A stretch of DNA of 32,000 nt, taken from positions 1 through 32,000 of the forward strand of contig JBHLMI010000022.1 of NCBI GenBank assembly GCA_048938295.1, read 5' to 3'. Below are positions 298 to 17,322 of this stretch, in pieces. The first letter of the stretch is position 1. Every line of letters begins with the position of its first letter. A program made the translations under genes and the position numbers. The notes under the pieces were generated by a model that saw only the letters and a list, made by a program, of their open reading frames with translations, searched no databases and was not told where the DNA came from. The DNA comes from Promethearchaeota archaeon. GTDB lineage: Archaea > Asgardarchaeota > Hermodarchaeia > Hermodarchaeales > Hermodarchaeaceae.

Positions 298-663
298 ATG
301 CAACTTGTAGAATTTGGCCTCATTCTTGTTTTCATTGCACTAATCTTCACATCGTTTCTTGCTTCCATCATTCTTTCTAGACTTGTTAGTCCCAGAAATC
401 CTTCCAAGGAGAAAACAACAAGTTTTGAATGTGGCGAGGCCCCAAGTGGAGCTGGACGGGACCAGTTCGTCTTCAGATATTATCCCTACTTGTTGATGTT
501 CTTAGTGTTTGACGTTTCAGCGATGTTCCTATTTGCTTGGGCGGGGGCTTTCTCCTCGTTAGGCTTCGAGCTTCACATGATTGTGTTAGCCTTCCTTTTG
601 ATTGTTTTACCACCGATTGCATATGCGGTGAATGTGGCGGCGAGGGCCGAAAGGTGGGAATAA
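298..663 (+). CDS. nuoA: NADH-quinone oxidoreductase subunit A
   Basis: Three TM segments, K-x4-FECGEAP loop and [13 protein letters not shown] motif. ATG 298 chosen over TTG 292. Confidence 0.93.
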
Positions 664-665
664 CT

Positions 666-1181
666 ATGACAGGAATCGGTTCAGCCTTTGTTGGTTCGCT
701 CCGCAGTGCCTTGAACCGTGTGGTTAATGTCAAACCATTTCGATACCTGGTGAATTGGTCACGATTGTATTCTCTCTGGCCTGTCCATTTGACGACCGCA
801 TGTTGTAGCGTGGAATTCGGAGCAACGATGGGCTCAGGTTTCGATGCGGAACGACTTGGCGTTCTTCCTCTCGGATCTTTGCGGCAATGCGATCTCCTGA
901 TCATTGAGGGAACTGTAACGAAGAAAATGGCTGAGAGGATTGTTCGGATTTACCACCAGATGGCTTCTCCACGTTATGTAATTGCTATGGGGGCTTGTGC
1001 AATAACAGGCGGGGTCTTTCGAGGTTCTTACAGCATAGTTCCAGGTGTTGATAAGATACTCCCAGTCGATGTGTATGTTCCGGGGTGTCCACCTCGACCG
1101 GAAATGCTCATAGATGCAATTTTGGAGCTTCAACAAAAAATCAGGGAATCTAAGGTGAGTTTAGTTGATGATACAAAGTGA
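666..1181 (+). CDS. nuoB: NADH-quinone oxidoreductase subunit B (N2 cluster)
   Basis: Tandem-Cys [21 protein letters not shown] and [13 protein letters not shown] motifs. The true start is ATG 666; the ORF-track extension to 537 overlaps nuoA. Confidence 0.96.
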
Positions 1182-1479
1182 TGTGTTTGAATTGCAGGCA
1201 GAAATCTGTAAGGTGTTAGCGAATCCTAAACGTATCCGCATTATACACATACTAAAAGATACTGAAAAGACGGTAACAGAAATTTCCCAAGAGCTTGGGA
1301 TTACCCAATCAAATACTTCACAGCACTTAATGAAAATGAAAGCAAAAGGCGTCCTTAAATCACGAAGAGATGGACGCGAGATATACTACAGCATTGCAGT
1401 TCCTGAGCTTTCCCTTGCCTGTGAGTTCGTTGGACGCGCCTTAGAGAAAATCATAGTTAGACCCACGACTATGAGATAG
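1168..1479 (+). CDS. ArsR/SmtB-family winged-helix transcriptional repressor with two Cys (C14, C85)
   Basis: [13 protein letters not shown]...[20 protein letters not shown]...[11 protein letters not shown] pattern. SD GGTGAG at 1154-1159. Overlaps the nuoB stop. Confidence 0.92.
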
Positions 1480-1486
1480 GAGAGGG

Positions 1487-1960
1487 ATGAATTTGTCGAA
1501 GTATCTTAAGGCCATTGAATCCACTTTCACAGAAACAGCCGTTAAGATTAGCGAGAGGTACCCAAACCAACCTGTAATTCGCGCAGACCGTGAATCCCTA
1601 CAATCCATCGCGCAGCATCTAAAAGACACCATAGGATTCGATCATGCAATATCAGTTACAATCATTGATGACATTGAGAATAGCCAGTTTCTGATCGCTT
1701 ACCATCTTTCCTCAGTCCAAATTGTCAAACTTCATGGAATTGTCTTGACCCTAGAAGTAACTGTTCCGAGAGCGAGTCCCCGCTTACCATCCTTGATTTC
1801 AATCTGGCCCAGTGTTGAGTTTCACGAACGGGAGGGATGGGAGATGTTTGGTGTAGAGTTTGAAGGGCATCCCAGGCTTGAACGACTGCTTTTGCCAGAA
1901 TCCTGGGAGGGGGGCAATCCACTTCGAAAAGACTTCAGATTACCGGAGGACTCACAATGA
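1487..1960 (+). CDS. nuoC: NADH-quinone oxidoreductase subunit C
   Basis: EREGWEMFGVEFEGHPRLERLLLPESWEGGNPLRKDF signature. Confidence 0.95.
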   Translation: MNLSKYLKAIESTFTETAVKISERYPNQPVIRADRESLQSIAQHLKDTIGFDHAISVTIIDDIENSQFLIAYHLSSVQIVKLHGIVLTLEVTVPRASPRLPSLISIWPSVEFHEREGWEMFGVEFEGHPRLERLLLPESWEGGNPLRKDFRLPEDSQ

Positions 1961-3036
1961 GTAAAATCGAGTATAGCATGGGTCCCCAACATGCAGGTAC
2001 AGGTCATATGCGTTTGAAGATCCATCTATCAGGTGACCATGTAATCCAAGCGCTACCAGATCCGGGTTATGTGCATCGGGGAGCAGAAAAGCTCTGTGAG
2101 TCAAAGGAATTCCTCTGGAACATTCCTCTCCTTGAACGCGTATGTCTCCCGGATACTACTTCTGCTGCATGGGGATACGTCCTCGCGCTTGAACGGCTAT
2201 TGGGGGTAGAACCCACCGAGCCTGCTCAGTATATGCGCGCTTTATTCGCAGAGATGAATCGAATTGTAAGCCACCTATATTGGCTTGCGATCTTTGGTAT
2301 TTTTCTTGGCCACTCAACGATGTTCATGTGGCCCTTCGCTGATCGTGAACCTTTCATTGCGCTTGCCGAAGCAATTTCCGGGGCCCGATTGACCTACACT
2401 GATATATACCCAACGGGCGTGCGTCATAGACTCCCCGATAATTTTGTGCCACAAATGATGAAGGTAACCAAAAATTTCCGTAGCCGTCTTGTCGATTATG
2501 AGCGGATCTTCTTCACGACCGACATTTTCAAACAGCGAACCAAAGAGGTTGGGGTCCTTACAAAAGAGGAGGCTATTCGATTGGGAACCACTGGACCCGT
2601 TCTTAGAGGATCTGGTGTGAATTATGACCTTCGGAAAATTGATCATTATGGACCTTATTCTAAATTAGATTTTAGACCTGCTGTTATGGATGGCGGGGAT
2701 AGCTACTCCAGGGCAATGGTTCGGTTAGAGGAAATGCGGACAAGTACCTCATTAATTGAGCAAATATTGGAGAAGATGCCTTCAGGAGAGGTCGGGCAAA
2801 GAATGCCGAAGAGAGTTCCCGCCGGCACCGCTTATACACGAGTAGAATCTGCCCGGGGCGAAATAGGGTATCTAGTTGTAAGCAATGGTGAGAAATACCC
2901 AAGCCGTGTAAAAATTAGTACGCCGTGCTTCCGTCACCTTCCAGCTCTTGAATTCTTGCTCAAAGACATTGACCTGGCAGACGTGCCAACCATTTACTGG
3001 AGTCTTGATTACTGGCCACCAAATGCGGATAGGTAG
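1957..3036 (+). CDS. nuoD: NADH-quinone oxidoreductase subunit D (TACK-type, no NiFe site)
   Basis: GPQH, GYVHRGAEK, AEMNRIVSHL, GPVLRGSG, VESARGE and C-terminal SLDYWPPNADR. No CxxC pair at either end. Confidence 0.95.
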   Translation: MSKIEYSMGPQHAGTGHMRLKIHLSGDHVIQALPDPGYVHRGAEKLCESKEFLWNIPLLERVCLPDTTSAAWGYVLALERLLGVEPTEPAQYMRALFAEMNRIVSHLYWLAIFGIFLGHSTMFMWPFADREPFIALAEAISGARLTYTDIYPTGVRHRLPDNFVPQMMKVTKNFRSRLVDYERIFFTTDIFKQRTKEVGVLTKEEAIRLGTTGPVLRGSGVNYDLRKIDHYGPYSKLDFRPAVMDGGDSYSRAMVRLEEMRTSTSLIEQILEKMPSGEVGQRMPKRVPAGTAYTRVESARGEIGYLVVSNGEKYPSRVKISTPCFRHLPALEFLLKDIDLADVPTIYWSLDYWPPNADR

Positions 3037-3042
3037 TGAGAA

Positions 3043-4092
3043 ATGATGCAAATTTTAGAAACGATTAATGTGTTCATTCTGCAGATAATTACCTTTATTC
3101 AAGTGAATTTCACAACCATTTTTCTCATAACCGTCTTCCCGGGTTTTCTCACTATTGTTCTCGCCGCAGCAGCAATAATTTGGTTTGAACGAAAATTCTT
3201 GGCAAAAATGCAATTGCGCGTAGGTCCTCAATATGCAGGACGCATTGGTGGTATATTTCAACCTATTGCTGACTTTTTGAAACTCATCTTCAAGGAAGGA
3301 ATAATTCCCAAACGTGCAGATAGTTTCTTCTATCAATTGGCACCATTACTTATTGTTACCCTTGCAGCTGTAACAGCAACCGTTATCCCTGTAGGGCCCA
3401 ATGCAGTGATAGCTAATCTTCAATTTGGGCTGCTATTTATCTTCGCAGTTGGAGCGATTTTCCCAGTTCTAGCCTTCTTGACTGCGTGGGCGAGTAATAG
3501 CGTGTATCCGTTTCTAGGAGGTTTACGTGCCCTTCTCCAAATGATCGCCTATGAGGTGCCCTTGTGGCTATCGGCCGTAGGCGTAGTTATTCTAGCAGGC
3601 TCTTTCAACCTCACTGAGATTGTTTTAGCACAAAATTGGCTTTGGTTTGTAATTCTCATGCCTCTTGGTGCAATAATCTATTTCATAGCACTCTTAGTTG
3701 AAATTGAGCGCCTCCCCTTTGACTTGCCTGAAGCAGAACCAGAGATTGTGACAGGTTACATGAGCGAATATTCGGGGATGAACTTTGGGCTTATGATGAT
3801 GTCACAATACCTCAAGTTATACCTGGGGGCACTACTATTCACGACCCTCTTCTTAGGCGGATGGTTAATGCCTCCGTTCATCACGAATATGTTTCCATTT
3901 ATTCCACTATTTGTTTGGACCTTACTCAAAACGGCCTTTGTCATTGTCCTCTTCCTAATTCCACGAGGAATCTACCCACGCGTGAAACTCTCGATACTTC
4001 TTCGTTTGGGGTGGAACCGTTTGTTCCTCCTTGCGATTGTGAACCTCTTCCTGGTTGTTGGAATAATGATTTTCTTCGGAGGGATTCCTTAA
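3043..4092 (+). CDS. nuoH: NADH-quinone oxidoreductase subunit H
   Basis: ERKFLAKMQLRVGP, QPIADFLKLIFKE and ERLPFDLPEAEPEIVTGYMSEYSG motifs; about 8 TM segments. Confidence 0.96.
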   Translation: MMQILETINVFILQIITFIQVNFTTIFLITVFPGFLTIVLAAAAIIWFERKFLAKMQLRVGPQYAGRIGGIFQPIADFLKLIFKEGIIPKRADSFFYQLAPLLIVTLAAVTATVIPVGPNAVIANLQFGLLFIFAVGAIFPVLAFLTAWASNSVYPFLGGLRALLQMIAYEVPLWLSAVGVVILAGSFNLTEIVLAQNWLWFVILMPLGAIIYFIALLVEIERLPFDLPEAEPEIVTGYMSEYSGMNFGLMMMSQYLKLYLGALLFTTLFLGGWLMPPFITNMFPFIPLFVWTLLKTAFVIVLFLIPRGIYPRVKLSILLRLGWNRLFLLAIVNLFLVVGIMIFFGGIP

Positions 4093-4520
4093 TGCCAATT
4101 AGAGCATCATGGGCGGGATTCAAACAACTTTTCAAGCGTCGTGTCACAATCAAATATCCAAGTGAAGAATTAGAACTGCCAAAGAGTGAACGCGCGCGGC
4201 ATGTCTTCTATTTCAATCGGTGTATCAGTTGTTCTTTATGCGCTCGAAGTTGCCCAACAGCAGCCATTACTATGATTGAGTATCCTGGAGAGGAAAAACC
4301 GAAAAAACACCCACAGATTGATTATGGCCGTTGCATATTTTGTGGATATTGTGTTGATGTCTGCCCAAAGCATGCTTTAGTTCATTCTCGCTATTTTCAC
4401 CTCGCAACTCGTGAAACTTCACCATTGGTCTATAGTCCAGATCAACTCGCTGAGATTCCTGAAGGAGAAGAGCATCTTCTCCCCTCCGAAGAGGAATTGA
4501 AGAAGGAGGAAGAACCATGA
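4092..4520 (+). CDS. nuoI: NADH-quinone oxidoreductase subunit I (2x[4Fe-4S])
   Basis: VTIKYP, CISCSLCARSCP and CIFCGYCVDVCP. Start ATG overlaps the nuoH stop (TAATG). Confidence 0.95.
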   Translation: MPIRASWAGFKQLFKRRVTIKYPSEELELPKSERARHVFYFNRCISCSLCARSCPTAAITMIEYPGEEKPKKHPQIDYGRCIFCGYCVDVCPKHALVHSRYFHLATRETSPLVYSPDQLAEIPEGEEHLLPSEEELKKEEEP

Positions 4521-5035
4521 TTGATCCATTCTTCTTACCAGATCTTGGAGTGCTTATAATCGGAGTGCTAACGGTTGGTGCGGCGATTGCAGCAGTCGAA
4601 TCCAGAGAAATCGTGTATGGAGCCATTTCATTAGCAGGAATGATCCTAGGGATTGCAGGACTTTACATCTTATTGGATGCAACTTATGCCGCAATGTTCC
4701 AGATCTCTGTGTATATAGGTGCAGTGGTAGTTCTCATTTTCTTTACTATCATGGTCGTCCCATATGAAGTTTGGAGGCACCGACTCAAACGACCATGGCG
4801 TGAATGGCTGATTCCACTAATTATCAATGGTTTTCTTCTCGGTGTGCTTCTCTACATCTTTAACACACCTGCCATTGTCTCAGCCCTTCCTGATCCAGCC
4901 TTCAGTTGGAATATGGCAGACCTAACAGTAGTCCTTCTACAGGATTATGGTGTGGTTCTACTAGTTCTCGGACTCGTACTCGTCTCAGCACTCCTAGGAG
5001 CACTAACTCTAACCAAAAAGGAGAACGAATCCTAA
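4517..5035 (+). CDS. nuoJ: NADH-quinone oxidoreductase subunit J
   Basis: Five hydrophobic segments, QISVYIGAVVVLIFF motif and canonical position between nuoI and nuoK. Confidence 0.9.
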   Translation: MIDPFFLPDLGVLIIGVLTVGAAIAAVESREIVYGAISLAGMILGIAGLYILLDATYAAMFQISVYIGAVVVLIFFTIMVVPYEVWRHRLKRPWREWLIPLIINGFLLGVLLYIFNTPAIVSALPDPAFSWNMADLTVVLLQDYGVVLLVLGLVLVSALLGALTLTKKENES

Positions 5036-5355
5036 TGGCATCACTTTTCGTGTATCTGATAATCGTTGCGGCTCTCGTTGTTATTGGACTCTATGGACTG
5101 ACAAGTAAACGGAATGTCATGCGGTTATTCTTCAGTATTGAAATACTCATGAATGGGGCGAACTTGAGTATCGTTGTATTTGCTCGATACATCCTCTGGG
5201 GAACCGCAGCACTCGCAATTAATGGGCAAGCCATCGTACTTTTCGCAATTTCCCTTGAGGCAGCTGAAGCCGTCGTCGCGCTTGCCATTATTCTACTAGT
5301 TTCACGTGTGCGTGGTTCAGTGGACATCCATGAACTACGTGACTTGGAGGGTTAA
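5035..5355 (+). CDS. nuoK: NADH-quinone oxidoreductase subunit K
   Basis: KRNVMRLFFSIEILMNGANL and AAEAVVALA motifs, 106 aa. Start ATG overlaps the nuoJ stop. Confidence 0.93.
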   Translation: MASLFVYLIIVAALVVIGLYGLTSKRNVMRLFFSIEILMNGANLSIVVFARYILWGTAALAINGQAIVLFAISLEAAEAVVALAIILLVSRVRGSVDIHELRDLEG

Positions 5356-5360
5356 CAGCG

Positions 5361-6893
5361 ATGCAGACACTATTCGACTCGGTCATATTATTCCTGCAAA
5401 TGTATCCACTAACTCTTGGTGTATTCATTCCAATTCTCTTTACTGGGTTAATCCTCTTCTTCGCCCGTCACAGAGAACGACTAGCAATCTGCTTAAGCGT
5501 TCTGGCGATTTTCCTTTCTACTACCCTGGTTTTTTTCCGAGGATTTGATTTATTTCCATTCTCAGCTACCTCACCCGCTTATGTTGCGGAGACAGTTCTC
5601 TGGATTCCTACCCTTAATATCAGCCTCAGTTTCATGCTCGATGGTCTCAATTTCCCCATCGTTCTTATCACAGCAATTGTAACCACACTAATACTTCTCT
5701 TTACTAGACATTACTTCGAAGATGAGAAGAATAGTGGAACCTACATCGCAACCATCATCGTGATGTACAGTGGAATGCTAGGCGTATTTGTTGCTGCAGA
5801 TCTTTTCTTATTCTATCTTTTTTGGGAAATCACAATAATCCCTGCATATGCATTGGTCATCTATTGGCGAGAAGCGGGAGTATCTAAGGAAGACGCTCGA
5901 AGAACCGGTTTGAAGTTCTTCCTTTGGACCCATGTCGGGTCACTTGTCATGCTCATGGGCTTAATCCTCGTTTTCATCCTAACTGGTACAACGAATATGG
6001 TTGATATTCCTATAGCGCTAACAACAGTACCTATAACAAACATCCACATAATGCAATTTGCTGCAGCCGCGCTGATTTTTGGGTTCATCGTCAAACTTGG
6101 TATCTTCCCTGTCCATAGTTGGCTCCCCGACACATACGTCCAAGTGTCCTCACCTGCTACAGCCATGTTTGGTGGACTTCTTGCCAACATTGGGGCTTAT
6201 GGTCTAATTCGTATTGCCACAAGCTGGTTTCCATTCATTATAGCCGCTTGGTCACTTCCACTAGGATTGATAGCGGTAGTCTCAATCATCTATGGTGGTT
6301 ATATCGCGTTAGGCCAAGGAGAGTTCAAGCGACGATGGGCATATTCGAGTGTGAGCCAAGGTGGATACATTCTCCTTGGAGTCGCCTCAGTGACATCCCT
6401 TGGAGTAGCTGGTGCAACTTTTCACATAATCAATTCCGCAATCATTAAATCAGCACTATTTCTCACTGCTGGCGCTTATCTCATGGTTCTGAAAACCACT
6501 GATATTGAGTCCCTTCGAGGCATGGGCACAAAGATGCCGATAACTGGTATTGCCTTCCTACTTATGGCCTTGGCAATGGCAGGAATTCCTCCCTTAAGCG
6601 GATTCATTAGCGAAGTCCTCATCTTCTTGGGGATTTTCACAATTTCAAGTGCCATTATTATTGCTCTAATTGGTGCAGCCGCGATTCTGGTGACTTTTGT
6701 ATATGTACTTGGTCCCATCTACAAACTTTTCGTGGCGCCCCCCAAGACCGAACAACCCCAATTCAACGATCCGAGTTTATGGCAAACGATTCCATTCATC
6801 CTCTTGACAATCTTTGTGTTTATTCTTGGGATTTGGCCTAATCTGGTGTTGACACCGATTGGACATTGGCTACAGAGCATGGGAGGACTCTAA
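5361..6893 (+). CDS. Extra antiporter-like subunit 1 (NuoM/MrpD-like, 510 aa)
   Basis: FWEIT (TM5 Glu), VKLGIFPVHSWLPD (TM7 Lys), YSSVSQGGY and GIPPLSGFISE (TM12 Glu, M-type). The TM8 Lys position is Asn. Confidence 0.88.
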   Translation: MQTLFDSVILFLQMYPLTLGVFIPILFTGLILFFARHRERLAICLSVLAIFLSTTLVFFRGFDLFPFSATSPAYVAETVLWIPTLNISLSFMLDGLNFPIVLITAIVTTLILLFTRHYFEDEKNSGTYIATIIVMYSGMLGVFVAADLFLFYLFWEITIIPAYALVIYWREAGVSKEDARRTGLKFFLWTHVGSLVMLMGLILVFILTGTTNMVDIPIALTTVPITNIHIMQFAAAALIFGFIVKLGIFPVHSWLPDTYVQVSSPATAMFGGLLANIGAYGLIRIATSWFPFIIAAWSLPLGLIAVVSIIYGGYIALGQGEFKRRWAYSSVSQGGYILLGVASVTSLGVAGATFHIINSAIIKSALFLTAGAYLMVLKTTDIESLRGMGTKMPITGIAFLLMALAMAGIPPLSGFISEVLIFLGIFTISSAIIIALIGAAAILVTFVYVLGPIYKLFVAPPKTEQPQFNDPSLWQTIPFILLTIFVFILGIWPNLVLTPIGHWLQSMGGL

Positions 6894-6895
6894 CA

Positions 6896-8521
6896 ATGCT
6901 TCCCGGAATTGCTCTTCCATTCCCATTCCTGCTTCTATCACTTCTCATTCCAGTCATTGCAGGGATTCTTATCCTACTTTCCCTTTTAGTAGGAAAACCC
7001 CTTGGACGAAAAGGTTCCGGAATCATTGCGTCGATTGCCCTGGCAATTTCATTCACCACTCTACTGTATGTTCTTAGTATTGTACTCACTTTAGGACAAC
7101 CAGTCTACGAAGAGCATTATTGGTTCTCAATAGGAACAGTGGTCGTCGAATTTTCACTCCTCGCGGATTTCCTTAGCCTTCCCCTTTCATTGGCAATTGT
7201 TGGGTTGTGTACTGCATCAGCAGTATACAGCATCGAATACATCAAAGATAAACACGATTTTGCCATGTACTATGTTCTGTTACTCCTCTTTGCAGTCGGC
7301 ATGCTAGGAGTGACCATGGCAACGAACCTTCTTGTATTTTTCATCTTCTTTGAAGGTATGAACGTTCCCGCTTACTTCCTTGTCTCCAACTGGGGCACGA
7401 AGAAGGCCAAGATCATCGGCGTGAAATATATCCTCTATGTTTTCATCGGTGCTATTTGTATTCTTGCTGCAATTTTTTGGGTCTTCGGTATCACTAGTGC
7501 TTTGGGTACTCCGACACTAAATATCTATGAGGTCCCAGCACTACTTAGTCCACTTGCTTCAACGAGTCTACTCATCATGCAAAGCCTTGCCCTCCTCTTC
7601 TCCATCGGATTTTTTGTGAAAATGGCAATATTTCCACTTCATTCCTGGCTTCCTGACTTTCATGGAGAAGCCCCAGTGCCGATTCATGCATTATTGAGCG
7701 CTGTCATGATTAAGACAGGGGCTTACGGCTTCATCCGCATTACCTACTTCTTCTTCCCGCTTGTCGTATTACAAGCTTCAATTCTCCTAGCTGTTCTTGC
7801 CATTATCACGATGATTTGGGGAGCAGGTATGGCCCTGGTTCAAACGGATTACAAACGTGTACTCGCTTATAGCTCAGTCAATCAGATCGGTTATATCCTT
7901 CTGGGCTTCAGTACAATGAACATTTTCGGAATCACGGGAGCCCTCTTTCACATCTTAACTCATGGTCTGTCGAAAGGCGTCTTACTCTATACTGCAGGCT
8001 CCGTCGTTCATTCTGCAGGAACGAAACTCATCAACAAGATGGGAGGTTTAGCTTCGAAGATGCCTCTGACAGCAACTCTGAGCACCATAGGCGCATTAGC
8101 TATCGCAGGAACGCCACCACTTGCCACATTTGTCAGTGAGGCCTTCATCTTCATCGGGGTCTTCACCGTAGGTGTCAACTATCCGATTTTTACTGTCATA
8201 GGAGTAATTGGCATCATTTCCACAGCGCTTACTGCAGCGTATTATTTATGGACCGTGCGTCGGATGTTCCTCGGTCCACCATCCACGGAAATGGACAAAA
8301 CATACGAAGAATATCTCGCTGGCAGATACATTTCACCAGAGGGAATTCCACGTCGATTTGAGGAGGCCCATGAATCACCGCCGTTGATGACCATTCCGAT
8401 GCTGATTGTCGCGTTACTCATTATCCTCTTTGGTGTGTTTGCAGCCCTTATTCTCCCAATCATTTATCCCGCAGCTGAAGCGGCCATTGCAATTCTAACA
8501 GCTGCGATAGGAGGACTCTGA
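6896..8521 (+). CDS. Extra antiporter-like subunit 2 (NuoM/MrpD-like, 541 aa)
   Basis: FFEGM, VKMAIFPLHSWLPD, MIKTGAYG, YSSVNQIGY and GTPPLATFVSE. ATG 6896 follows SD GGAGG at 6882-6886. Confidence 0.88.
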   Translation: MLPGIALPFPFLLLSLLIPVIAGILILLSLLVGKPLGRKGSGIIASIALAISFTTLLYVLSIVLTLGQPVYEEHYWFSIGTVVVEFSLLADFLSLPLSLAIVGLCTASAVYSIEYIKDKHDFAMYYVLLLLFAVGMLGVTMATNLLVFFIFFEGMNVPAYFLVSNWGTKKAKIIGVKYILYVFIGAICILAAIFWVFGITSALGTPTLNIYEVPALLSPLASTSLLIMQSLALLFSIGFFVKMAIFPLHSWLPDFHGEAPVPIHALLSAVMIKTGAYGFIRITYFFFPLVVLQASILLAVLAIITMIWGAGMALVQTDYKRVLAYSSVNQIGYILLGFSTMNIFGITGALFHILTHGLSKGVLLYTAGSVVHSAGTKLINKMGGLASKMPLTATLSTIGALAIAGTPPLATFVSEAFIFIGVFTVGVNYPIFTVIGVIGIISTALTAAYYLWTVRRMFLGPPSTEMDKTYEEYLAGRYISPEGIPRRFEEAHESPPLMTIPMLIVALLIILFGVFAALILPIIYPAAEAAIAILTAAIGGL

Positions 8522-8522
8522 T

Positions 8523-10556
8523 ATGTTTCCGTTTGCACAATGGCTTACATGGATCCTCCCAATACTGGGTGCGATTCTTATTGCTTTAATTGGATGGCTT
8601 GACAAGCGAATATCAAAATACATTGCAGTCATAGTTGGTGCAATCGCGGGTATATTCGCTATTTCCATGATTCCAGATATTCTCGCCCTACCCTCGCTGG
8701 GATTACCTTATCTTGAGTCCAATATACCATGGGTTGTCCTTCCAGGAGTTGCAATTTATGTTGGCGTTTTGCTGGATCCACTCAGCGTCTTTATGGCGAA
8801 CATAGCCGTCTTAATCGGCTTCTTAATCATCGTCTATTCTATGAGCTATATGGGTGAAGATAAGAGCCAAACCCGATATTATGCTCTGATTTTACTTTTT
8901 ATCGGCGCTATGGCAGGGTTAGTTCTTGCCAACAACTTTCTCCAGCTATTCATCTTCTGGGAAGTTGTAGGCGTCTGCTCTTATGCCTTGATTGGGTTCT
9001 GGTATGAGAAACCCGAAGCCGCAAGGGCAGGAATGAAAGCTTTTGTTGTTACTCGAGTGGGGGACGTGTTTCTCTTAATTGGAATCGTCTTCCTCTTTAC
9101 ACAAGTAGGATCATTCAACTACATTGTTATTCAAGACGCTGTGGAACTTGGATTGATTAGCCTATCTGCTCTTACCATGACCTCTCTTTTCACCTTTGGA
9201 GGGGCTATGGGTAAGTCGGCTCAGGTCCCCTTCCATGTCTGGCTTCCAGATGCTATGCAGGGTCCAACCCCAGTTAGTGCCCTCATTCACGCAGCAACAA
9301 TGGTGAAAGCAGGAATCTACCTGGTTGGTCGAACTTTCTTCCTTTTCGGTTCTGTCACGCTATGGCTTAACACGGTCATAATAGTTGGCGCAATCACCAC
9401 TATTCTGGCAGCTACTATTGCCTTAGTTTCAACAGATCTAAAGGCTGTTCTCGCATATTCGACCATAAGTCAACTCGGCCTCATCATGGCGGCACTAGGT
9501 GTTGGTACAACTCTTGGTTGGTTTGCAGGGCAAGCACATGTAATGAGCCATGCCATTTTCAAAGCTCTGCTTTTCCTTTGTGCTGGCTCTGTTTTACATG
9601 CAGTAATGACTAATGACATCAACCAGATGGGTGGTCTTCGCCGGAAAATGCCTATCACTTTTGCAGCTAGTTTAATTGGCGTTCTAGCACTCGCGGGTAT
9701 TTTCCCATTTAATGGATTCTGGAGTAAAGACCTCATTTTTGCAGCAACATTACAATCAGGTGCACTCATATCTCTAATTCTTCTTTGGGTTGCTTCTGTA
9801 TTCACGGTTGCCTATAGTTTTCGCTGGATCATCTTGATTTTCATGGGTAACCCACGTAATGAAGAAATTGGTACTCATGTTCATGAAAGTCCTAAGTTAC
9901 TCACCGTTCCACTCATGATCTTAGCTGTTGGAGTCGTTTTTTCTGCGTTTCTAATTCCCACTGGATTACTTGCTACATACTTCGATGCTCATATCCATTT
10001 CGAAATTGAATTAATTCCACTCTTACTTTCTCTGTCCACCCTTGTAATCGGTGGTATACCCGCTATTCTAATCTATAAGTACCGAAAACCCGCACCGGAA
10101 TTCTTTAGTCAGAATCGCATCACTCGTGCACTTCAAACCATATTGAGCAACGGCTACTACTTCGATAAGATTTATGACTGGATATTTGTTCGCGGCACTC
10201 TGCGTATCTTCAACTTCATTCTTTCACGCGTTGAACTTGGGACTATCGACCGATTCCACTACATCTTTGCTCCTAAAGTTGAAGCGGGAAGCCGAATCCT
10301 AGATCAGGTGGTCGAGTCACGAGGATCAAAAGGAGCGAATTACAAGTTTGCACAATTTATGGTGAAAACCTCGATCGCCAGCAACTACGTTGATGCAAAC
10401 ATAGTTGATGGAGCAGTAAACGGTATTGCCAAAGCAGGAGAGAAGGCTTCTAGAAGCCTACGCCGGGTGCAAACAGGCATTACTATGAATTATGTCCTGG
10501 CTTTTGTGGTTGGTATAATTCTACTGATACTCTTTCTTGTGACGTTGGTAGGGTGA
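8523..10556 (+). CDS. nuoL: NADH-quinone oxidoreductase subunit L with an extended lateral helix
   Basis: FWEVVG, GKSAQVPFHVWLPDAMQGPTPVSALIHAATMV, HAIFKALLF and GFWSKD. C-terminal YYFD...QTG helix followed by the final TM. Confidence 0.96.
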   Translation: MFPFAQWLTWILPILGAILIALIGWLDKRISKYIAVIVGAIAGIFAISMIPDILALPSLGLPYLESNIPWVVLPGVAIYVGVLLDPLSVFMANIAVLIGFLIIVYSMSYMGEDKSQTRYYALILLFIGAMAGLVLANNFLQLFIFWEVVGVCSYALIGFWYEKPEAARAGMKAFVVTRVGDVFLLIGIVFLFTQVGSFNYIVIQDAVELGLISLSALTMTSLFTFGGAMGKSAQVPFHVWLPDAMQGPTPVSALIHAATMVKAGIYLVGRTFFLFGSVTLWLNTVIIVGAITTILAATIALVSTDLKAVLAYSTISQLGLIMAALGVGTTLGWFAGQAHVMSHAIFKALLFLCAGSVLHAVMTNDINQMGGLRRKMPITFAASLIGVLALAGIFPFNGFWSKDLIFAATLQSGALISLILLWVASVFTVAYSFRWIILIFMGNPRNEEIGTHVHESPKLLTVPLMILAVGVVFSAFLIPTGLLATYFDAHIHFEIELIPLLLSLSTLVIGGIPAILIYKYRKPAPEFFSQNRITRALQTILSNGYYFDKIYDWIFVRGTLRIFNFILSRVELGTIDRFHYIFAPKVEAGSRILDQVVESRGSKGANYKFAQFMVKTSIASNYVDANIVDGAVNGIAKAGEKASRSLRRVQTGITMNYVLAFVVGIILLILFLVTLVG

Positions 10557-10562
10557 GTCAAG

Positions 10563-12023
10563 ATGGTTCTATGGGAAAATGCATTACTCATATTGATCGG
10601 TGGAGCACTCCTCGGCTCCCTCATCACGTACTTGCTTGGACGGTTCGGTTCAATGATTGTCAAAGGCTTTGCTGTAGCCTGGACAACCTTATTGTTCCTC
10701 TTCACAGGATTATTATGGCTAGGATTCAACCCAAGCACACCAGGATTCTCCTACCTAATTGATATTCCTTGGATACCAGCCCTTGGAATTACTTTCAAAC
10801 TTGGTGTTGACGGAATCAGTTTTCCACTTTTACTAGCAACAACACTTCTTACCCTAGCCGCGGCGATTGGGTCCATGACGCTAATCAAAGAACACGTAGC
10901 CATATACTACGGTACCCTCTTGCTATTAGAGGCGGCCCTCATGGGAGTTTTTATTTCACTAAACCTTCTAGTCTTCTTCATCTTTTGGGAACTCGTGCTA
11001 ATCCCCATGTTCATCTTAATCGGTGTATGGGGCGGTGCAAACCGCCGTTATGCCGCAATGAAATTCCTCATCTTTACCCATGTCGGCAGCATCCTGATGC
11101 TTTTAGGATTCATTATGCTCTTCCTCTTTGCAGGCACCTGGGATTTGACTTACTTCCTCACATCACCCATCCCCTTTGCCGTTGCACTGCCGATAATGAT
11201 CATTACCTTCATTGGATTTGCCGTGAAGTTACCCATCGTTCCCCTTCACACCTGGCTCCCAGATGCACACGTAGAAGCCCCTGCACCTATCAGCATTATT
11301 CTTGCTGGTGTCCTACTAAAAATGGGAGGATACGGCTTCATTCGAATTTCAATCGGCGTATTTCCACAGATTGCAGCTTTACTTGCTCCAGCCATCATGG
11401 GCTTTGGTATCATCACCATCTTCTATGGAGCCCTCGTCGCATTGAACCAACGGGATATGAAACGCATGATTGCTTTGACCAGTATCAACCATATGGGACT
11501 AGTCTTACTCGGAGCATTTACCTTAACAACAATTGGAGTGGCTGGAGCCGTTTTAATGATGTTCAATCATGCATGTGCAATTGGATTGATGTTTTTACTC
11601 ACTGGTGTTATCCAGAAACGTGCTGGAACCCGAAACATCGATGAACTTTCTGGCATGGGCAAATTGATGCCATGGACAGCTCTGTTCTTTGTCTTAGGCT
11701 CACTCGCGTCAATGGGAATACCACTCTTCGCACCGTTTGTCAGCGAATTCATGATCTTTACTGGAACACTTTCAATTCTGCCCATTCTAGTTTTTGTGAT
11801 CCTCGCCCCTGGAATTGTCGTTGCCTACTTCCTATGGACGATTGATCGAATAATTATTTCAGATCCCCATCCCGGAACCCGCATGCGACGAGCCCGCCTT
11901 AGCGAACTTATCGCGCTATTATTACTTCTACTTCCCATCATTCTCCTTGGACTCTTACCAGCTATGATGGTTGACCGAATAGTACCTGCTGTACAGCTCT
12001 TATTAAGTGGTGGAGGTTCGTAA
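10563..12023 (+). CDS. nuoM: NADH-quinone oxidoreductase subunit M
   Basis: FWELVLIPMF, VKLPIVPLHTWLPDAHVEAP, LLKMGGYG and FVSEF; canonical position between nuoL and nuoN. Confidence 0.95.
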   Translation: MVLWENALLILIGGALLGSLITYLLGRFGSMIVKGFAVAWTTLLFLFTGLLWLGFNPSTPGFSYLIDIPWIPALGITFKLGVDGISFPLLLATTLLTLAAAIGSMTLIKEHVAIYYGTLLLLEAALMGVFISLNLLVFFIFWELVLIPMFILIGVWGGANRRYAAMKFLIFTHVGSILMLLGFIMLFLFAGTWDLTYFLTSPIPFAVALPIMIITFIGFAVKLPIVPLHTWLPDAHVEAPAPISIILAGVLLKMGGYGFIRISIGVFPQIAALLAPAIMGFGIITIFYGALVALNQRDMKRMIALTSINHMGLVLLGAFTLTTIGVAGAVLMMFNHACAIGLMFLLTGVIQKRAGTRNIDELSGMGKLMPWTALFFVLGSLASMGIPLFAPFVSEFMIFTGTLSILPILVFVILAPGIVVAYFLWTIDRIIISDPHPGTRMRRARLSELIALLLLLLPIILLGLLPAMMVDRIVPAVQLLLSGGGS

Positions 12024-13493
12024 ATGCAACTTGCTGAATTGGTCACCTTGTTCAATACTCTACTCGCAAGCCCCTTCTTCCCCTTCATCGTATTTGCCAT
12101 TCTCGGATTGCTTACGCCTGTTATTAATCGGATCTTTCGAGGGAAAGTTACGGCTTACTGGCCTTTAGTCAGCCTAGGTATATTTGCCATACTGGTATTG
12201 CCAAGATGGGCAACTGTGCTTACTTCCCCCATTATGACCCCAAGCCTCCTCTTTGATAGTATTAGCCTTTTCTTTGTTACCCTGTTTATCGTTGTTGGTT
12301 TTGCTGTAACCATTGCTTCAATAGATTACTTCAGAGAAAATCACAATCAAGAAATATACTACACTTTGCTGCAATTGGCACTTCTTGGCATGATGCTAAT
12401 TTCTATGGCTGTTGACTTAATTGTCATGTTTGCCGGATGGATTCTGGTCGCCGTTACCAGCTACACCCTTGTTGTGATTCGTAAAGAGGATGCTAAGGGT
12501 GTGGAGGCAGGTGTTAAATACTTCATAATGGGTGCAGCATCCTCCTCCATTCTCTTTCTCGGCATCTCAATAACATACGGACTCACTGGAAGCACCCAAC
12601 TAGCAGAAATTTCTACAGCCTGGGCTGCACTCGATCCGAACCTTATTCCTCTCGCATTACTAGGCGTAATGCTGATTCTTGTAGGATTTGGATTCAAAAT
12701 GGGCATTACCCCGTTTCACATGTGGTTACCTGACACTTACGAAGGGGCCCCACAGCCAGTTTCCGCATTTCTCGGCGGAGGCTCAAACAAAGCTGCATTC
12801 GCTGCTGCTATCCGTGTCTTCATTTTGGGATTTTTAGTTTTCCGCTTCCAATGGACCGCTGCCTTTGCATTTCTAGCCCTAATAACTATGACGTGGGGAA
12901 ACATTGCAGCACTCTCCCAGAAAACCCTTCCAAGATTGCTTGCATACTCAGCTATTGCTCAAGCAGGATACACAATCATCGGTCTAGCTGCTCCAACGGT
13001 CTTAGGATTATCTGGTTTTATGTTTCACGCATTGAATGACGGGGTAGCCAAGACAGGAGCGTTCATTGCAGCAGCAGCCGTTGCATTTACTCTTTCGAAA
13101 ACCAAGCTTTCGGATTACAAAGGCCTGGGCAAGCGAATGCCAATCACTGCGTTCAGCCTAGCGATTCTATTATTAGCCCTAGCCGGTATTCCTCCGCTAA
13201 GTGGTTTCTTCAGCAAACTGATCCTGTTTACAGCTGCCGTTGAAGTTGGATTAATCTGGTTAGCTCTTGCGGGAGTCCTAAACAGTGCATTTTCCCTTGC
13301 ATATTATGGATGGATAATCAAACGAATGTATATGGATGAACCTGATGAATCAGATGCTGATCAAACAGTTAGAGAATCGCGTAAATTCCAATTCGCACTT
13401 GTTGCACTCGCTGCTGCCACAATCCTCATTGGACTATTTAGCGGTATAATTATCGGATACATCGAAACCATGGTAATTGGATTCTACCCCTAA
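12024..13493 (+). CDS. nuoN: NADH-quinone oxidoreductase subunit N
   Basis: EAGVKYFIMGA, FKMGITPFHMWLPDTYEGAP, RLLAYSAIAQAGY and AGIPPLSGFFSK (TM12 Lys). Confidence 0.94.
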   Translation: MQLAELVTLFNTLLASPFFPFIVFAILGLLTPVINRIFRGKVTAYWPLVSLGIFAILVLPRWATVLTSPIMTPSLLFDSISLFFVTLFIVVGFAVTIASIDYFRENHNQEIYYTLLQLALLGMMLISMAVDLIVMFAGWILVAVTSYTLVVIRKEDAKGVEAGVKYFIMGAASSSILFLGISITYGLTGSTQLAEISTAWAALDPNLIPLALLGVMLILVGFGFKMGITPFHMWLPDTYEGAPQPVSAFLGGGSNKAAFAAAIRVFILGFLVFRFQWTAAFAFLALITMTWGNIAALSQKTLPRLLAYSAIAQAGYTIIGLAAPTVLGLSGFMFHALNDGVAKTGAFIAAAAVAFTLSKTKLSDYKGLGKRMPITAFSLAILLLALAGIPPLSGFFSKLILFTAAVEVGLIWLALAGVLNSAFSLAYYGWIIKRMYMDEPDESDADQTVRESRKFQFALVALAAATILIGLFSGIIIGYIETMVIGFYP

Positions 13494-13512
13494 ACAAGTA
13501 GTAATAATCAAC

Positions 13513-14874
13513 TCACTCATTTGGTGGAGTTATTCGTAAGAACCGTCCAACGAGCGTGACAATATCAAGCACGGGAATGTCCAAGCCAAGCTTTTGCATG
13601 CCATGTGTGAGATTAAGCACACAGAAAGGGCAGGCTGTGACAACCATGGTTGCCCCCACATCCACGATTTCACCAACACGCTCCCACGCCATTCGCTCTT
13701 CTAAAGGCATCGCTGCCTTCTCTTCTTCGGAAAGTTCACGATACTCCTTTGAGAGCTTTTTTGCAGCAGCCTTTACTTGAGCAGGTGAACTCCTTGGTTC
13801 AGTATCATAGATTCGCTTTGCAGCAATTTCCAAGGCAAGCTCGGGAATACCAGCTTTGACTCCGCCTCCCGCTCCACAGCACCGAGAGTATTCTCGGGTG
13901 CGACTCATTTCAACCAGTGTAATGCCGGGCAAAAGATTGAGGATTTGCCGTGGAGCATCATAGACACCAACATGTCGACCGAGATGGCAAGGATCATGGT
14001 AAGCAACACGTTCTTTGATGCCTGGAAGAGGTTTAATGTCAATGTTTTCAAGAGCCTTGGCGAGTAATTGAGTAATGTGCTGCACTTTGAATGGGAGTTT
14101 TCCGTAGTATCGTGGCCAATCGAACACGGACGTTCGGAAACATCCCGAGCAGGAATAGACAACGAGTTTGACGCCTTTTTCTTTGATGGTGTCCACATTG
14201 TGTTGGACTAAATCCTTAACAACCTCAATTTGTCCAGTTCGGATGAGAGGGGAACCACAACACCGTTCATCATTCCCTGGTAGCACAAAATCAATATTAA
14301 GTTTATTGAGAATACGAGCCGTGGTGATAGCAAGATGCTGCATTTTATACGAAGAGGTGCATCCAACGAAGTAGGCAACATCAGCGACCTCAGCAACTTT
14401 TACATCGGCGGGAAGCCAATCCGTACGGGAGCGATGATCTTCGCCATACGGGTTAAACTTGGTTTTCACATTGTTCGGCCAGTCCCGCTGACGTTCAAGT
14501 GGACCAAAACCCTGTTTCACCATATCAGCGCGAACCGTTTCCCATAAATCGCAACTTTTTATCCGTGATTCACACACCGTTTGACATTGTCCACACACAG
14601 TACAAAGATACAGATCCTCAACGAACTTGTCGATTTTATTCCTATCAATGACACTTCCCCCTCGAGCACGCCCCATAATTCCATACACATGTTTGACCAT
14701 TTCTCGCAGATTTCGAATTTTTCCACGCGCTGTTACACCTTCACGTTGTAACTGATCAAAGACTGGACAGAACTTAACACATTCACCACAATCAACACAA
14801 GCATCCAGCTCCATCGCCTGCTTCCGCGTTAACTGTGGGAAACTAACCTTTTCCTTATTTGTGGTCACTCTCAT
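13513..14874 (-). CDS. hdrD: Heterodisulfide reductase catalytic subunit D-like (2x[4Fe-4S] plus two CCG domains), Methanosarcina-type
   Basis: MELDACVDCGECVKFCP, CTVCGQCQTVCE, YFVGCT, ERCCGSPLIRTGQ, YHDPCHLGRH, RCCGAGGGVKAG and ACPFC closely parallel Methanosarcina HdrD as recalled from memory. ATG 14874 has a GGGAG SD. Confidence 0.85.
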   Translation of the reverse strand: MRVTTNKEKVSFPQLTRKQAMELDACVDCGECVKFCPVFDQLQREGVTARGKIRNLREMVKHVYGIMGRARGGSVIDRNKIDKFVEDLYLCTVCGQCQTVCESRIKSCDLWETVRADMVKQGFGPLERQRDWPNNVKTKFNPYGEDHRSRTDWLPADVKVAEVADVAYFVGCTSSYKMQHLAITTARILNKLNIDFVLPGNDERCCGSPLIRTGQIEVVKDLVQHNVDTIKEKGVKLVVYSCSGCFRTSVFDWPRYYGKLPFKVQHITQLLAKALENIDIKPLPGIKERVAYHDPCHLGRHVGVYDAPRQILNLLPGITLVEMSRTREYSRCCGAGGGVKAGIPELALEIAAKRIYDTEPRSSPAQVKAAAKKLSKEYRELSEEEKAAMPLEERMAWERVGEIVDVGATMVVTACPFCVLNLTHGMQKLGLDIPVLDIVTLVGRFLRITPPNE

Positions 14875-15583
14875 CAACTCCCGTAATTTCCCGGATATAT
14901 TCCTCCTCCCACTTTTCTTCAATAGCACTGCGGACCATAATTATTGGTGCTGCAATGATATGCTGGAATTTTGAATAAAATAAAACTGCAATCATCGTCC
15001 AAATAATGAAACCGTGAATGATTCCATACCATCCTCGGATACCGATGACATACTCATATGAAAAAGCCATATGCCCTGATATTGCAATGGAAAGTAGTAG
15101 AATCAGTGGCAAGTAGTTATGGAGGTTTGTAACCGCCCGCCCCTCTTTCGAACCAATGCGACTCCCAAAAGCCATTATTACACCGATTACAAGCAATATA
15201 GTCAATACATCATGAGCAATTATTCGCATTTCCAGTGTAGCCCAAGGAAAGAGAATGGTTTCATTGAGCAAAATGAATCGAGGGATCCCATGGAAAAGAA
15301 GGAGACCCACAAATCCTACTATAATGAATCCATGTTTCACCCATCGATATACAGACTGACGTTTAATCGTTCCACCAAACGTCCAGTCAGAAATAACCGT
15401 GTTAATAAAAGCAGTGAGTTTGGTCCGAAAAGGTACATCAATAAGCCAACCAGCAGTATGCTCAGCAGGACCTTTATGCGGTTTCGTCCACCGGACAAGA
15501 ATACGAATGAAACCAATCGTAAAAAGGGCTAGCGCAATCCAACGATAGAAAAATAGAATTTGATATGCTAGCTCTTGTTGCAT
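14855..15583 (-). CDS. hdrE: Membrane di-heme cytochrome b (NarI/HdrE family), partner of HdrD
   Basis: About 5 TM segments, His pairs RWVKH...LLFH and IIH...YSKFQHIIAAP, and IKRQSVYRW motif. Directly upstream of, and overlapping, hdrD. Confidence 0.8.
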   Translation of the reverse strand: MQQELAYQILFFYRWIALALFTIGFIRILVRWTKPHKGPAEHTAGWLIDVPFRTKLTAFINTVISDWTFGGTIKRQSVYRWVKHGFIIVGFVGLLLFHGIPRFILLNETILFPWATLEMRIIAHDVLTILLVIGVIMAFGSRIGSKEGRAVTNLHNYLPLILLLSIAISGHMAFSYEYVIGIRGWYGIIHGFIIWTMIAVLFYSKFQHIIAAPIIMVRSAIEEKWEEEYIREITGVDESDHK

Positions 15584-15680: not shown

Positions 15681-15736
15681 GAAAAAGAAGGGGGAAATTG
15701 GAGGGCTTGACAATAAAATCAGTAGCCCTCCAATTT
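15681..15736 (-). terminator. Hairpin + C-run + U-tract terminator-like element downstream of the DoxX gene
   Basis: Perfect 13-bp inverted repeat AAATTGGAGGGCT (15695-15707)/AGCCCTCCAATTT (15724-15736), followed on the minus strand by a C-run and TTCTTTTTC. Confidence 0.7.
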
Positions 15737-15754: not shown

Positions 15755-16453
15755 CTATGTCCATAATCCTAAGAACCTTAGGAAGGCGTTTTTAGATTCC
15801 TGAAGCTTTGGACCGAGCCACCTGTCCACGCCTATGTATCGACCGGCTTGATACATTCCTACAACGAGGAATGCTAAAGCACCAAGGAAGTTGATACCAA
15901 AGGTGGAGACGCTTAGCCATCCCAGTAGGAAGAGGAATGACCATTGCATGAGAACTCCGCCCAATGAACCTAATCGAGTGAAGAACCCGAAGGTTATGGA
16001 CAGCCCGACAAGAAGTTCACCTATAGCGATAAGCATCAGAAAAGCCGTTGGGTTCAATAGAATTACCGTATTAAAGAAACCTTGAATATAGGGACTGGGG
16101 GCAGTTGAGGCAGCGAGATTGAGAAGGCCATAATTTGTTGGGTAGGCAGGATCGAGTAATTTTTCTAATCCGCCATGAAGGAACTCATAACCTAACGCTA
16201 ATCGCAATGGGAACAGAAATGCCAGCATTGGGAATTTATCTGGCCAGCCCCATCGCAAAAAGAAGAAGATAGGTACAAGAAGAATCGCTAGAATCACTAA
16301 GGGTGACAGAATTAAGCTGAGAGAGGGAACAAGGAGGCTGGGATCTGGCACTATCCATTGAGGTCCCAAAGCCAGAGCGATGATTACACCGAGAATTATT
16401 GTGACAACTACTGTGAAAATAAGAGCAATCCATTGATTTCGATTTATTTCCAT
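15755..16453 (-). CDS. DoxX/DoxD-family membrane protein (thiosulfate:quinone oxidoreductase small subunit-like) with two extra N-terminal TM segments
   Basis: LRLALGYEFLHGGLEKL, GELLVGLSITFGFFTRL and AGRYIGVD motifs. ATG 16453 has an AAGGAG SD. Confidence 0.8.
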   Translation of the reverse strand: MEINRNQWIALIFTVVVTIILGVIIALALGPQWIVPDPSLLVPSLSLILSPLVILAILLVPIFFFLRWGWPDKFPMLAFLFPLRLALGYEFLHGGLEKLLDPAYPTNYGLLNLAASTAPSPYIQGFFNTVILLNPTAFLMLIAIGELLVGLSITFGFFTRLGSLGGVLMQWSFLFLLGWLSVSTFGINFLGALAFLVVGMYQAGRYIGVDRWLGPKLQESKNAFLRFLGLWT

Positions 16454-16605: not shown

Positions 16606-17322
16606 TTATAAGTGAATTTCAAGCTGGCAGCCGTCATCCCCGTGTGACATGCAACTCACTCGCTCAACAGCACGAGCTGGTTTGTCACACATCAATGTGA
16701 AGAGAGTCGGATAATAAGAATTGTGGAAATGACACATCAGGCCTTCATACTTGTAGCTGACTTCTTGATACAAGCAATTGTGAGTTCGAATAATAATTCT
16801 GTTCTCGGTAAACGTAAGACTCGCATTATAACCGAGTCGGTGTAGTGCTTCGCTAAGCTTCTTTCGAAACGTGTTTATACTCATGGGAATGCGATGGTTT
16901 TGTTTCCATTGAGTGGCGGTGTCATGTGCCGATAGGGTACCCATGTCTTTGAACAGTTCAATCGTGTTCTTTTCCCCATATTTCTGGAGCAGTGTTGAGA
17001 TGAGGAGGTCAGCTAGTTGCCAATAACGTCGTGGAGGCGTGCTCGTGATAAGAGCTTTTTGGAGTCGGTATAACTGAGGGGGGCGTCCACGAGAGCGAGG
17101 CTTTTCATTGTCGCTATAACTTTCTGAAATTACCCCCAAGGCGAGGAGATCGATTAAGGCGTATCGGATGGCAGATTCACTGAGATTAGTACCACCGGCG
17201 ATATCGCTCACAGCAGAATCGGGATGTGTGGCTATGAATTCAATAATCCGAGTTGAAGCCTTTTGACTATTTAGGGAAATTTGAGATACAGTCTCATCAT
17301 CTATTACGAATTTGCCAGGCAT
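16606..17322 (-). CDS. Winged-helix transcriptional regulator with a C-terminal Cys-rich V4R/SufR-like sensor domain
   Basis: N-terminal HTH, RGRPPQLYRL, PPRRYWQLADLL, HNCLY...MCHFH...SCMSHGDDGC. Confidence 0.8.
   Translation of the reverse strand: MPGKFVIDDETVSQISLNSQKASTRIIEFIATHPDSAVSDIAGGTNLSESAIRYALIDLLALGVISESYSDNEKPRSRGRPPQLYRLQKALITSTPPRRYWQLADLLISTLLQKYGEKNTIELFKDMGTLSAHDTATQWKQNHRIPMSINTFRKKLSEALHRLGYNASLTFTENRIIIRTHNCLYQEVSYKYEGLMCHFHNSYYPTLFTLMCDKPARAVERVSCMSHGDDGCQLEIHL

Follow-up and report, generated by a model that had tools for sequence, protein, structure and literature searches.

A probable membrane-bound heterodisulfide reductase (HdrDE) encoded beside a headless complex I-like operon in a Hermodarchaeia archaeon

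The hdrE-hdrD pair and its family

HdrDE, the membrane-bound heterodisulfide reductase, is usually taken to point to a cytochrome-containing methanogen, methanotroph or alkane oxidiser that bears methyl-coenzyme M reductase (MCR) (PMC9478090). In Methanosarcinales (M. barkeri, M. thermophila, M. acetivorans) it is encoded by a two-gene hdrE-hdrD unit and depends on methanophenazine. Like these, a 32,000-nucleotide stretch of an Asgard genome (hereafter the window; class Hermodarchaeia, assembly GCA_048938295.1, contig JBHLMI010000022.1, positions 1 to 32,000) possessed an hdrE-hdrD pair, here facing a complex I-like operon. The presence of HdrDE without MCR in Hermodarchaeota has been known since 2021, when Zhang et al. 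(2021, ISME J, PMC8163825) reported hdrD/hdrE in four metagenome-assembled genomes (MAGs) together with fpo and nuo, tfr, hdrABC and mvhADG and no MCR, and left it to be determined whether a cycle of the heterodisulfide of coenzymes M and B (CoM-S-S-CoB) operates. Because that study lists HdrDE, Fpo/Nuo, Tfr and the absence of MCR, the finding as first written in an earlier note on this DNA counts as known. The 2021 report is at annotation level, without an HdrD/HdrE phylogeny, complex I linkage or genus-level restriction, and the words "cysteate", "sulfopyruvate" and "comD" each occur zero times in its text, which hence makes no statement on CoM biosynthesis (PMC8163825). In the literature searched, we found no placement of the Asgard pair beside Methanosarcinales HdrDE, no restriction to one sampled Asgard genus, no persistent linkage of hdrED to exchangeable complex I-like operons, no Methanosarcinales-type CoM synthesis genes in the same genomes, and nothing on cysteate synthase in Asgard archaea or on HdrD in Hodarchaeales. 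What is added here to the known presence is the phylogenetic placement, the persistent complex I-like linkage and the link to CoM synthesis.

The pair very probably belongs to the HdrDE family. HdrD matched two CCG domains (3.2e-36) and the dicluster domain Fer4_8 in Pfam, and all 18 expected cysteines (8 ferredoxin, 5 in each CCG motif) were present and invariant across the homologue set aligned, as the earlier note had described for a CCG-domain protein with intact Cys motifs. Against M. thermophila HdrD it was 42% identical over 440 residues, in effect over its full length, with the same two cubane and two CCG/non-cubane motifs. Comparison of the active sites found the catalytic Cys set unchanged and the core motifs identical to those of methanogen HdrD, with 100 positions conserved jointly with Methanosarcinales HdrD versus 17 fixed differences, none in a core motif. 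Unlike Methanosarcinales HdrD, the window's clade carried its own insert of about 45 amino acids (residues 356-400) between the second CCG motif and the last CxxC. The CCG/CSGC motifs and the separate subunits argue for retained catalysis. No Tat or signal sequence was evident at the N-terminus as read from the sequence.

NCBIfam gave no HdrD-specific model, and hence no curated cut-off for HdrD; the best match was the HdrD-like half of TfrB, under its cut-off. Scores on the models of related enzymes were far lower than required, for GlpC (104 bits versus 278), GlcF (60 versus 333) and DsrK (52.9 versus 400), and LdhH, TmcB and HmcF were likewise far under their cut-offs. The neighbours of hdrD encode a cytochrome b and a DoxD-family protein, without the flavoprotein partner that GlpC/GlcF/LutA-type subunits have. 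In a collection of 5.8 billion proteins, homologues at 84-94% identity came solely from Asgard MAGs, and the next tier (42-46%) comprised two metagenomic groups and bona fide Methanosarcinales HdrD, which also supplied the best named matches after the window's own clade. The nearest homologues were from Asgard MAGs, in line with the Asgard origin suggested by the earlier note.

Phylogenies of HdrD were built from 80 GTDB loci and database matches, as a quick 102-row tree and a careful 55-row maximum-likelihood (ML) tree. In the latter, the window's clade (support 100/100) lay inside a clade (100/98) holding exactly those HdrDs with an adjoining HdrE gene. The window's clade, Methanosarcinales (100/99) and two metagenomic clades formed a polytomy (94/97), on which the quick tree agreed. 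Soluble Asgard HdrD-like proteins, which were 31-37% identical and had no HdrE neighbour, fell elsewhere, as did the HdrD of Methanomassiliicoccales. The window's HdrD stood apart from GlpC/GlcF, DsrK and EtfD/EMO and did not branch with GlcF/GlpC/lactate dehydrogenase (LutA)-type CCG enzymes, so that the Methanosarcina-type label of the earlier note was upheld. We also considered a recent transfer from within Methanosarcinales and rejected it, as the window's clade is not nested inside that group. Among the tree loci, one record filed as Dialister hominis (L036, CAVICI010000061.1) had an HdrD nested among Methanomethylophilaceae, and is probably a mis-binned archaeal contig.

HdrE, on sequence and predicted fold, is a divergent five-helix cytochrome b of NarI type, predicted to bind heme. 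It had no Pfam match and only weak NCBIfam matches, to QmoC, TmcC and HmcE. By hhalign it aligned with the M. thermophila HdrE, the product of the gene upstream of hdrD there, at a probability of 95% and 26% identity. A word-based search returned nine close homologues only; an exhaustive profile search of 1.84 billion representatives returned 47 matches at E <= 1e-3 and reached NarI-type relatives, with the more distant matches carrying the NarI family PF02665. A sequence search of the PDB gave no match, even at E = 10. Five hydrophobic helices were seen in the sequence and as five long transmembrane (TM) helices in the AF2 model (pLDDT 85.7), for which Foldseek ranked M. smegmatis EtfD (9ojn, TMq 0.62) first, followed by E. 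coli NarI; the Foldseek E-values were weak (best 0.015), with a probability of 1.00 and a coherent ranking.

Four histidines are candidate heme ligands, H84 and H98 in TM2 and H190 and H208 in TM5, in agreement with the earlier note, which had named four ligand candidates in a NarI/HdrE-type cytochrome b, a type now backed by hhalign, profiles and the AF2 fold. All four were invariant in the close clade, as were H124 and H171, and three of them (H84, H190 and H208) were conserved across 34 HdrE-like sequences. In the EMO (electron transfer flavoprotein (ETF):(methyl)menaquinone oxidoreductase) of S. aciditrophicus, the proximal heme is reported to be held by H87 and H251 and the distal heme by H233 (bioRxiv 10.64898/2026.08.18.745454). 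The three conserved histidines correspond to ligands reported for that enzyme and modelled for M. acetivorans HdrE. The build of five TM helices and the conserved histidines of TM2 and TM5 are also those of Methanosarcinales HdrE. Unlike Methanosarcina HdrE, the window's HdrE escapes the Pfam NarI model and has the extra H98, which was invariant in the window's clade and its nearest relatives and could be a NarI-like second axial ligand of the distal heme (bis-His).

Linkage to complex I-like operons

The earlier note had placed the pair in hdrE-hdrD order, 19 bp from the stop of nuoN, and the open reading frames (ORFs) gave the same coordinates, with nuoN ending at 13493. The operon that it faces begins with nuoB and an embedded ArsR gene, continues with nuoCDHIJK and closes with five antiporter-like subunits. 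No NuoE/F/G or FpoF was found in the window and no member of the NuoF family in the genome, which bears out the description of the complex as headless. When 301 Asgard genomes were sampled with HdrE as query, the protein was found in 9 of the 14 other members of the genus, in none of the four genomes of the sister genus and in none of the 282 elsewhere.

Linkage of the pair to a complex I-like operon was conserved in all six genus members examined: doxD-hdrE-hdrD converged on the 3' end of the nuo operon in five (G118, G106, G052, G011, G110), and in the sixth (G060) the two were separated by a 13-kb insert. HdrD was 85-94% identical to the window's among these six relatives. In three of the six the neighbouring Nuo proteins were 40-52% identical to the window's and formed a four-pump operon, with HdrD at 85-91%. 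The operon beside hdrED thus came in two forms within the genus, with five pumps (83-96% identical to the window's) or with four (40-52%; loci L098, L099 and L101 compared with window positions 1957-13493). No closer copy of the relatives' four-pump operon was found elsewhere in the window's genome. The operon type was exchanged or diverged at the hdrED locus while the neighbourhood persisted, which suggests in-place replacement of a whole respiratory operon. Since the genomes compared are close kin, the linkage is modest evidence for functional coupling of HdrDE and complex I; it does agree with the conserved linkage that the earlier note's reading called for. The hdrE-hdrD pairing is common to Methanosarcinales loci and all relatives; the tie to a headless five-pump (in relatives four-pump) complex I-like operon and a DoxD-family gene sets the window apart from the Methanosarcinales locus.

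As in the window, a headless operon also lies near hdrD in Methanomassiliicoccales, where an Fpo-like complex and a soluble HdrD underlie the ferredoxin:heterodisulfide oxidoreductase model. In three MAG loci of this group (L029, L040, L043), hdrD and the Fpo-like operon were on different strands, with about 0.9-1.2 kb between hdrD and the operon's final antiporter-like gene. Unlike the window's protein, this HdrD has no HdrE and belongs to a separate clade (100/98), and its hosts have MCR.

At a locus from the sister clade of the window's HdrD (L084:1-21404, a JGI metagenome contig), hdrE-hdrD was preceded by a CBS-domain gene and surrounded by a geranylgeranyl-reductase-like gene, a polyprenyl synthase and two UbiA prenyltransferases. 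Directly after hdrD came a FixC/ETF-QO-like gene, and SdhA-SdhB-SdhE(CCG) lay about 3 kb downstream. This neighbourhood ties HdrDE to carrier synthesis and to fumarate/succinate enzymes.

Genome content, electron chain and substrate

The rest of the genome (2.52 Mb, 91.6% complete) bears on what the pair might reduce. On contig C38:33376-36449 (L108:7377-10450, minus strand), genes for a CysH-like PAPS/APS reductase, cysteate synthase and a fused sulfopyruvate decarboxylase, ComDE, were adjacent. Cysteate synthase (TIGR03844) scored 516 bits with a cut-off of 325, and the fused ComDE scored 187 bits (cut-off 148) in its alpha half and 224 (cut-off 221.5) in its beta half. Cysteate synthase and ComDE are signature enzymes of Methanosarcinales-type CoM synthesis. 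The cysteate synthase was 80% identical to a protein labelled Candidatus Hermodarchaeota, and beyond its own lineage the nearest proteins were from Methanosarcina and Methanoperedens (51-54%); scores over the cut-off were found in 12 of the 301 sampled Asgard genomes. ComE-like genes were present in 12 of 14 genus members versus none of the four in the sister genus. TfrB, of the thiol:fumarate reductase TfrAB, scored 501 bits (cut-off 385) next to TfrA; with the window's genome included, 14 of the 19 members of the family had a TfrB over the cut-off. HdrB and HdrC were over their cut-offs, an HdrA2-like protein was found with an HdrB2-like partner, and an MtaA-like methyltransferase scored 232 bits (cut-off 235).

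A second complex I-like operon was found on contig C41:25735-35046, with NuoD, H, L, M and N homologues 33-41% identical to the window's. It ends in an FrhB/FpoF-like gene and is a probable F420H2 dehydrogenase besides the window's headless complex. To the chain from ferredoxin through a membrane carrier to a disulfide that the earlier note had drawn, this operon adds a second possible entry for electrons besides the headless complex. The genome is thus like those of Methanosarcinales in its Fpo-like complex with FpoF, its type of CoM synthesis, HdrA2 and HdrBC, and in that no menaquinone pathway was detected, and unlike them in that the host is without MCR or an Mtr core. Searches of the genome for ComA, DsrC/TusE, MqnA and MenB found none of them.

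Two further loci touch on carriers and CCG proteins. On contig C2:157340-159569 (L109:7341-9570), a weak MenA-like UbiA prenyltransferase gene (91 bits) overlapped the start of an AhbD/NirJ2-like radical SAM gene (307 bits, under cut-off), a candidate pair for heme or membrane-carrier biosynthesis. On contig C5:39851-42379 (L106:5852-8380, minus strand), an HdrB-like CCG protein of 291 amino acids (230 bits on the HdrB model, under cut-off) shared a cluster with a NuoD/FpoD-like subunit of another complex I/hydrogenase-like operon, so that this genome has two cases of a CCG protein encoded next to a module of complex I type.

In the reading we favour, either or both of two complexes would deliver electrons to a lipophilic membrane carrier that is not evidently menaquinone: the headless five-pump complex encoded next door, with ferredoxin as its probable donor, and the Fpo-like complex encoded elsewhere, which through FpoF would draw on F420H2. 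HdrE would oxidise the reduced carrier at the outer face of the membrane and pass the electrons over two hemes b and two cubane clusters to the pair of non-cubane clusters in HdrD, where, on the cytoplasmic side, a low-molecular-weight heterodisulfide would be split into two thiols. Because the genome has CoM synthesis genes, TfrAB and HdrBC, the most likely substrate, judged from gene content, would be CoM-S-S-CoB or a different disulfide containing CoM. Its regeneration would fall to enzymes that oxidise thiols, such as TfrAB, and not to MCR, so that the whole chain would amount to an energy-conserving, thiol-mediated respiration of fumarate or another acceptor. We give this scheme, taken as a whole from HdrDE fed by complex I/Fpo to fumarate respiration through Tfr, an even chance. 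Its most specific form, a complete Methanosarcina-like chain on the CoM/CoB heterodisulfide with a non-quinone carrier and regeneration by Tfr, in an organism neither making nor oxidising methane, is rather doubtful.

If the favoured scheme is true, the Tfr reaction noted as non-conserving by Zhang et al. becomes the end of an energy-conserving chain, and the roles of coenzymes M and B extend beyond C1 and alkane metabolism. HdrDE in an MCR-free lineage suggests that a heterodisulfide/thiol couple can be a respiratory relay in its own right. Thiol-relayed fumarate respiration would also fit the fumarate-addition hydrocarbon metabolism predicted for Hermodarchaeum-type archaea, and would provide a concrete energy-conserving route for Asgard archaea degrading organic matter in anoxic sediments.

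Several observations weigh against this scheme. No mcrA (PF02249) was found in the 91.6%-complete genome, while control genomes were detected, and the canonical source of CoM-S-S-CoB is therefore missing. Beyond the window's genome, cysteate synthase was found in only 6 of the 14 other genus members and was undetected in the closest hdrED-bearing relatives (G118 and G106, MAGs 84-87% complete), a comparison limited within the genus by MAG incompleteness (72-89%). The ComE score is just over its cut-off (224-226 versus 221.5) and phosphonopyruvate decarboxylase is a close family; TfrA, at 692 bits, is slightly under its cut-off of 718, and tfrAB is unlinked to hdrED in this genome. The profiles used cannot separate the known CoB enzymes from leucine-pathway paralogues. 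As enzymes acting on other substrates retain the CCG motifs too, a conserved site does not fix the substrate. A rival reading, the one that the earlier note had suggested, is an HdrDE-type reductase that acts on another disulfide and runs no CoM/CoB cycle; the disulfide could be that of another low-molecular-weight thiol pair or of a protein, or the substrate could be a polysulfide or persulfide. The missing mcrA and ComA, the patchy cysteate synthase, the clade-specific insert beside the second CCG motif, the 17 fixed differences and the cycle left open in 2021 (PMC8163825) all favour it, as does the conserved upstream neighbour from the DoxD/DoxX family, which is tied to thiosulfate/thiol chemistry at quinone sites. 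The absence of mcrA does hold genome-wide; the other half of that earlier argument is weakened by cysteate synthase, ComDE, TfrB, HdrB and HdrC, all found outside the window, where the two signature enzymes of CoM synthesis are adjacent and TfrB, HdrB and HdrC pass equivalog cut-offs. DsrC/TusE was not found, the window holds no polysulfide or sulfite reductase context, and the core catalytic motifs are those of methanogen HdrD. A probable terminator lies after doxD, and the sister-clade loci are without the gene. We consider another disulfide unlikely.

Alternatively, the components of the favoured scheme might run in reverse, with HdrDE oxidising thiols (CoM-SH and CoB-SH, or others) and the carrier driving the five-pump complex backwards to produce reduced ferredoxin at the expense of the proton gradient, as proposed for ANME-2 reverse methanogenesis and for syntrophic reverse electron transport. 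That HdrDE and enzymes of complex I type can in principle work in both directions is established for Methanosarcinales and ANME models. The components would be identical to those of the forward chain, and HdrA2/HdrBC-type soluble enzymes that could make thiols are present. A proton-gradient-driven reverse loop is also described for the homologous EMO (bioRxiv 10.64898/2026.08.18.745454). No gene feature tells the direction, however, and the reverse route needs both a low-potential thiol source and a sink for reduced ferredoxin, so that we regard it as quite improbable. A further possibility is that the pair works like EMO/EtfD, as a wire that links a soluble electron donor, for instance the ETF of beta-oxidation, to the carrier pool, with non-cubane clusters that only conduct and with no disulfide chemistry. 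EMO/EtfD has the same NarI-like membrane, cubane and non-cubane domains, and M. smegmatis EtfD (9ojn) is the only solved structure that matched both subunits (HdrD at 6.9e-35, besides the HdrE model). The FixC/ETF-QO-like gene after hdrD in L084 has a counterpart about 8 kb away in L002, and the metabolism predicted for Hermodarchaeota includes fatty acid and alkane oxidation (PMC8163825). Characterised EMO/EtfD enzymes are, however, fused into a single chain, have lost one Cys of the distal cluster and have a His filling the substrate site (PMC13083937; bioRxiv 10.64898/2026.08.18.745454). None of these changes, nor an ETF donor, was seen for the window's pair: HdrD is a separate protein with all 10 CCG cysteines, and has CCG where 9ojn has CTG and CSGC where it has CPHC. 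Since L045 and L051, the fused bacterial forms sampled in the trees, retain the 10 CCG cysteines and lack the diagnostic EMO substitutions, it is on this alignment that the comparison with true EtfD rests. As HdrD branches with Methanosarcinales HdrD, far from those fused forms, and no etfAB was found in the window, a conducting role is highly improbable. NarI-type cytochromes b are also paired with CCG proteins in the quinone-linked membrane modules of sulfate reducers and Archaeoglobus (DsrMK/HmeCD/TmcBC/HmcEF). TmcC/HmcE and TmcB/HmcF/DsrK gave weak NCBIfam matches only, with scores far below the cut-offs, and, unlike for DsrMK, no DsrC was found in the genome and no dsr or other sulfate-reduction genes in the window.

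Locus layout and neighbouring genes

Four minus-strand genes face the nuo operon, in the order winged-helix (wHTH) regulator, doxD, hdrE and hdrD (Table 1). The likely start of hdrD is the ATG at 14874, giving a 20-nt overlap with hdrE, whose stop is at 14855-14857.

Table 1. Coordinates of the hdrED locus and the facing operon in the window
Feature	Position	Strand	Description and basis
hdrD	13513..14874	-	453 aa; cytoplasmic Fe-S subunit; two [4Fe-4S] ferredoxin and two CCG/non-cubane-cluster motifs
hdrE (P0002)	14855..15583	-	242 aa; five-helix NarI-type cytochrome b membrane anchor
Spacer	13494..13512	.	19 bp between converging nuoN and hdrD stops; ORF coordinates, sequence
Hairpin and T/C-rich tract	15695..15736	-	Between doxD stop and hdrE start; RNA fold
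doxD/doxX-family membrane protein	15755..16453	-	232 aa from conserved ATG; Pfam
Winged-helix regulator, Cys-rich MetOD1/MsvR-like C-terminal domain	16606..17322	-	Weak NCBIfam and Pfam matches
Complex I-like operon, converging on hdrD	537..13493	+	Pfam

The product of doxD matched the Pfam families DoxD (2.9e-13) and DoxX (2.1e-11). Its gene adjoined hdrE in all six genus relatives examined, and was not found at the sister-clade loci L084, L085 and L003. The hairpin between doxD and hdrE had a folding energy of -27.9 kcal/mol (z = -5.1), and none of 200 shuffles was as good. Because this stable hairpin with its T/C-rich tail separates the two genes, doxD appears to be a separate transcript that probably ends there, which would make hdrED a unit of its own. 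DoxD was also considered as a possible third HdrDE subunit; its conservation extends to the genus only, and the strong hairpin lies between its gene and hdrE.

The wHTH protein gave weak NCBIfam matches to MreA, MsvR and SufR and a weak Pfam match to MetOD1, and its Atlas neighbours were of the HTH_20 and MetOD1 families. Its C-terminal domain had a conserved Cys/His-rich pattern with weak MetOD1/MsvR/ATC-hydrolase-like signals. The gene or a paralogue (47-50% identical) occurred in the hdrED locus of every relative, at times between hdrD and nuoN; paralogues were seen in loci L098, L099, L100 and L101. The protein may regulate the locus in response to redox state or metals.

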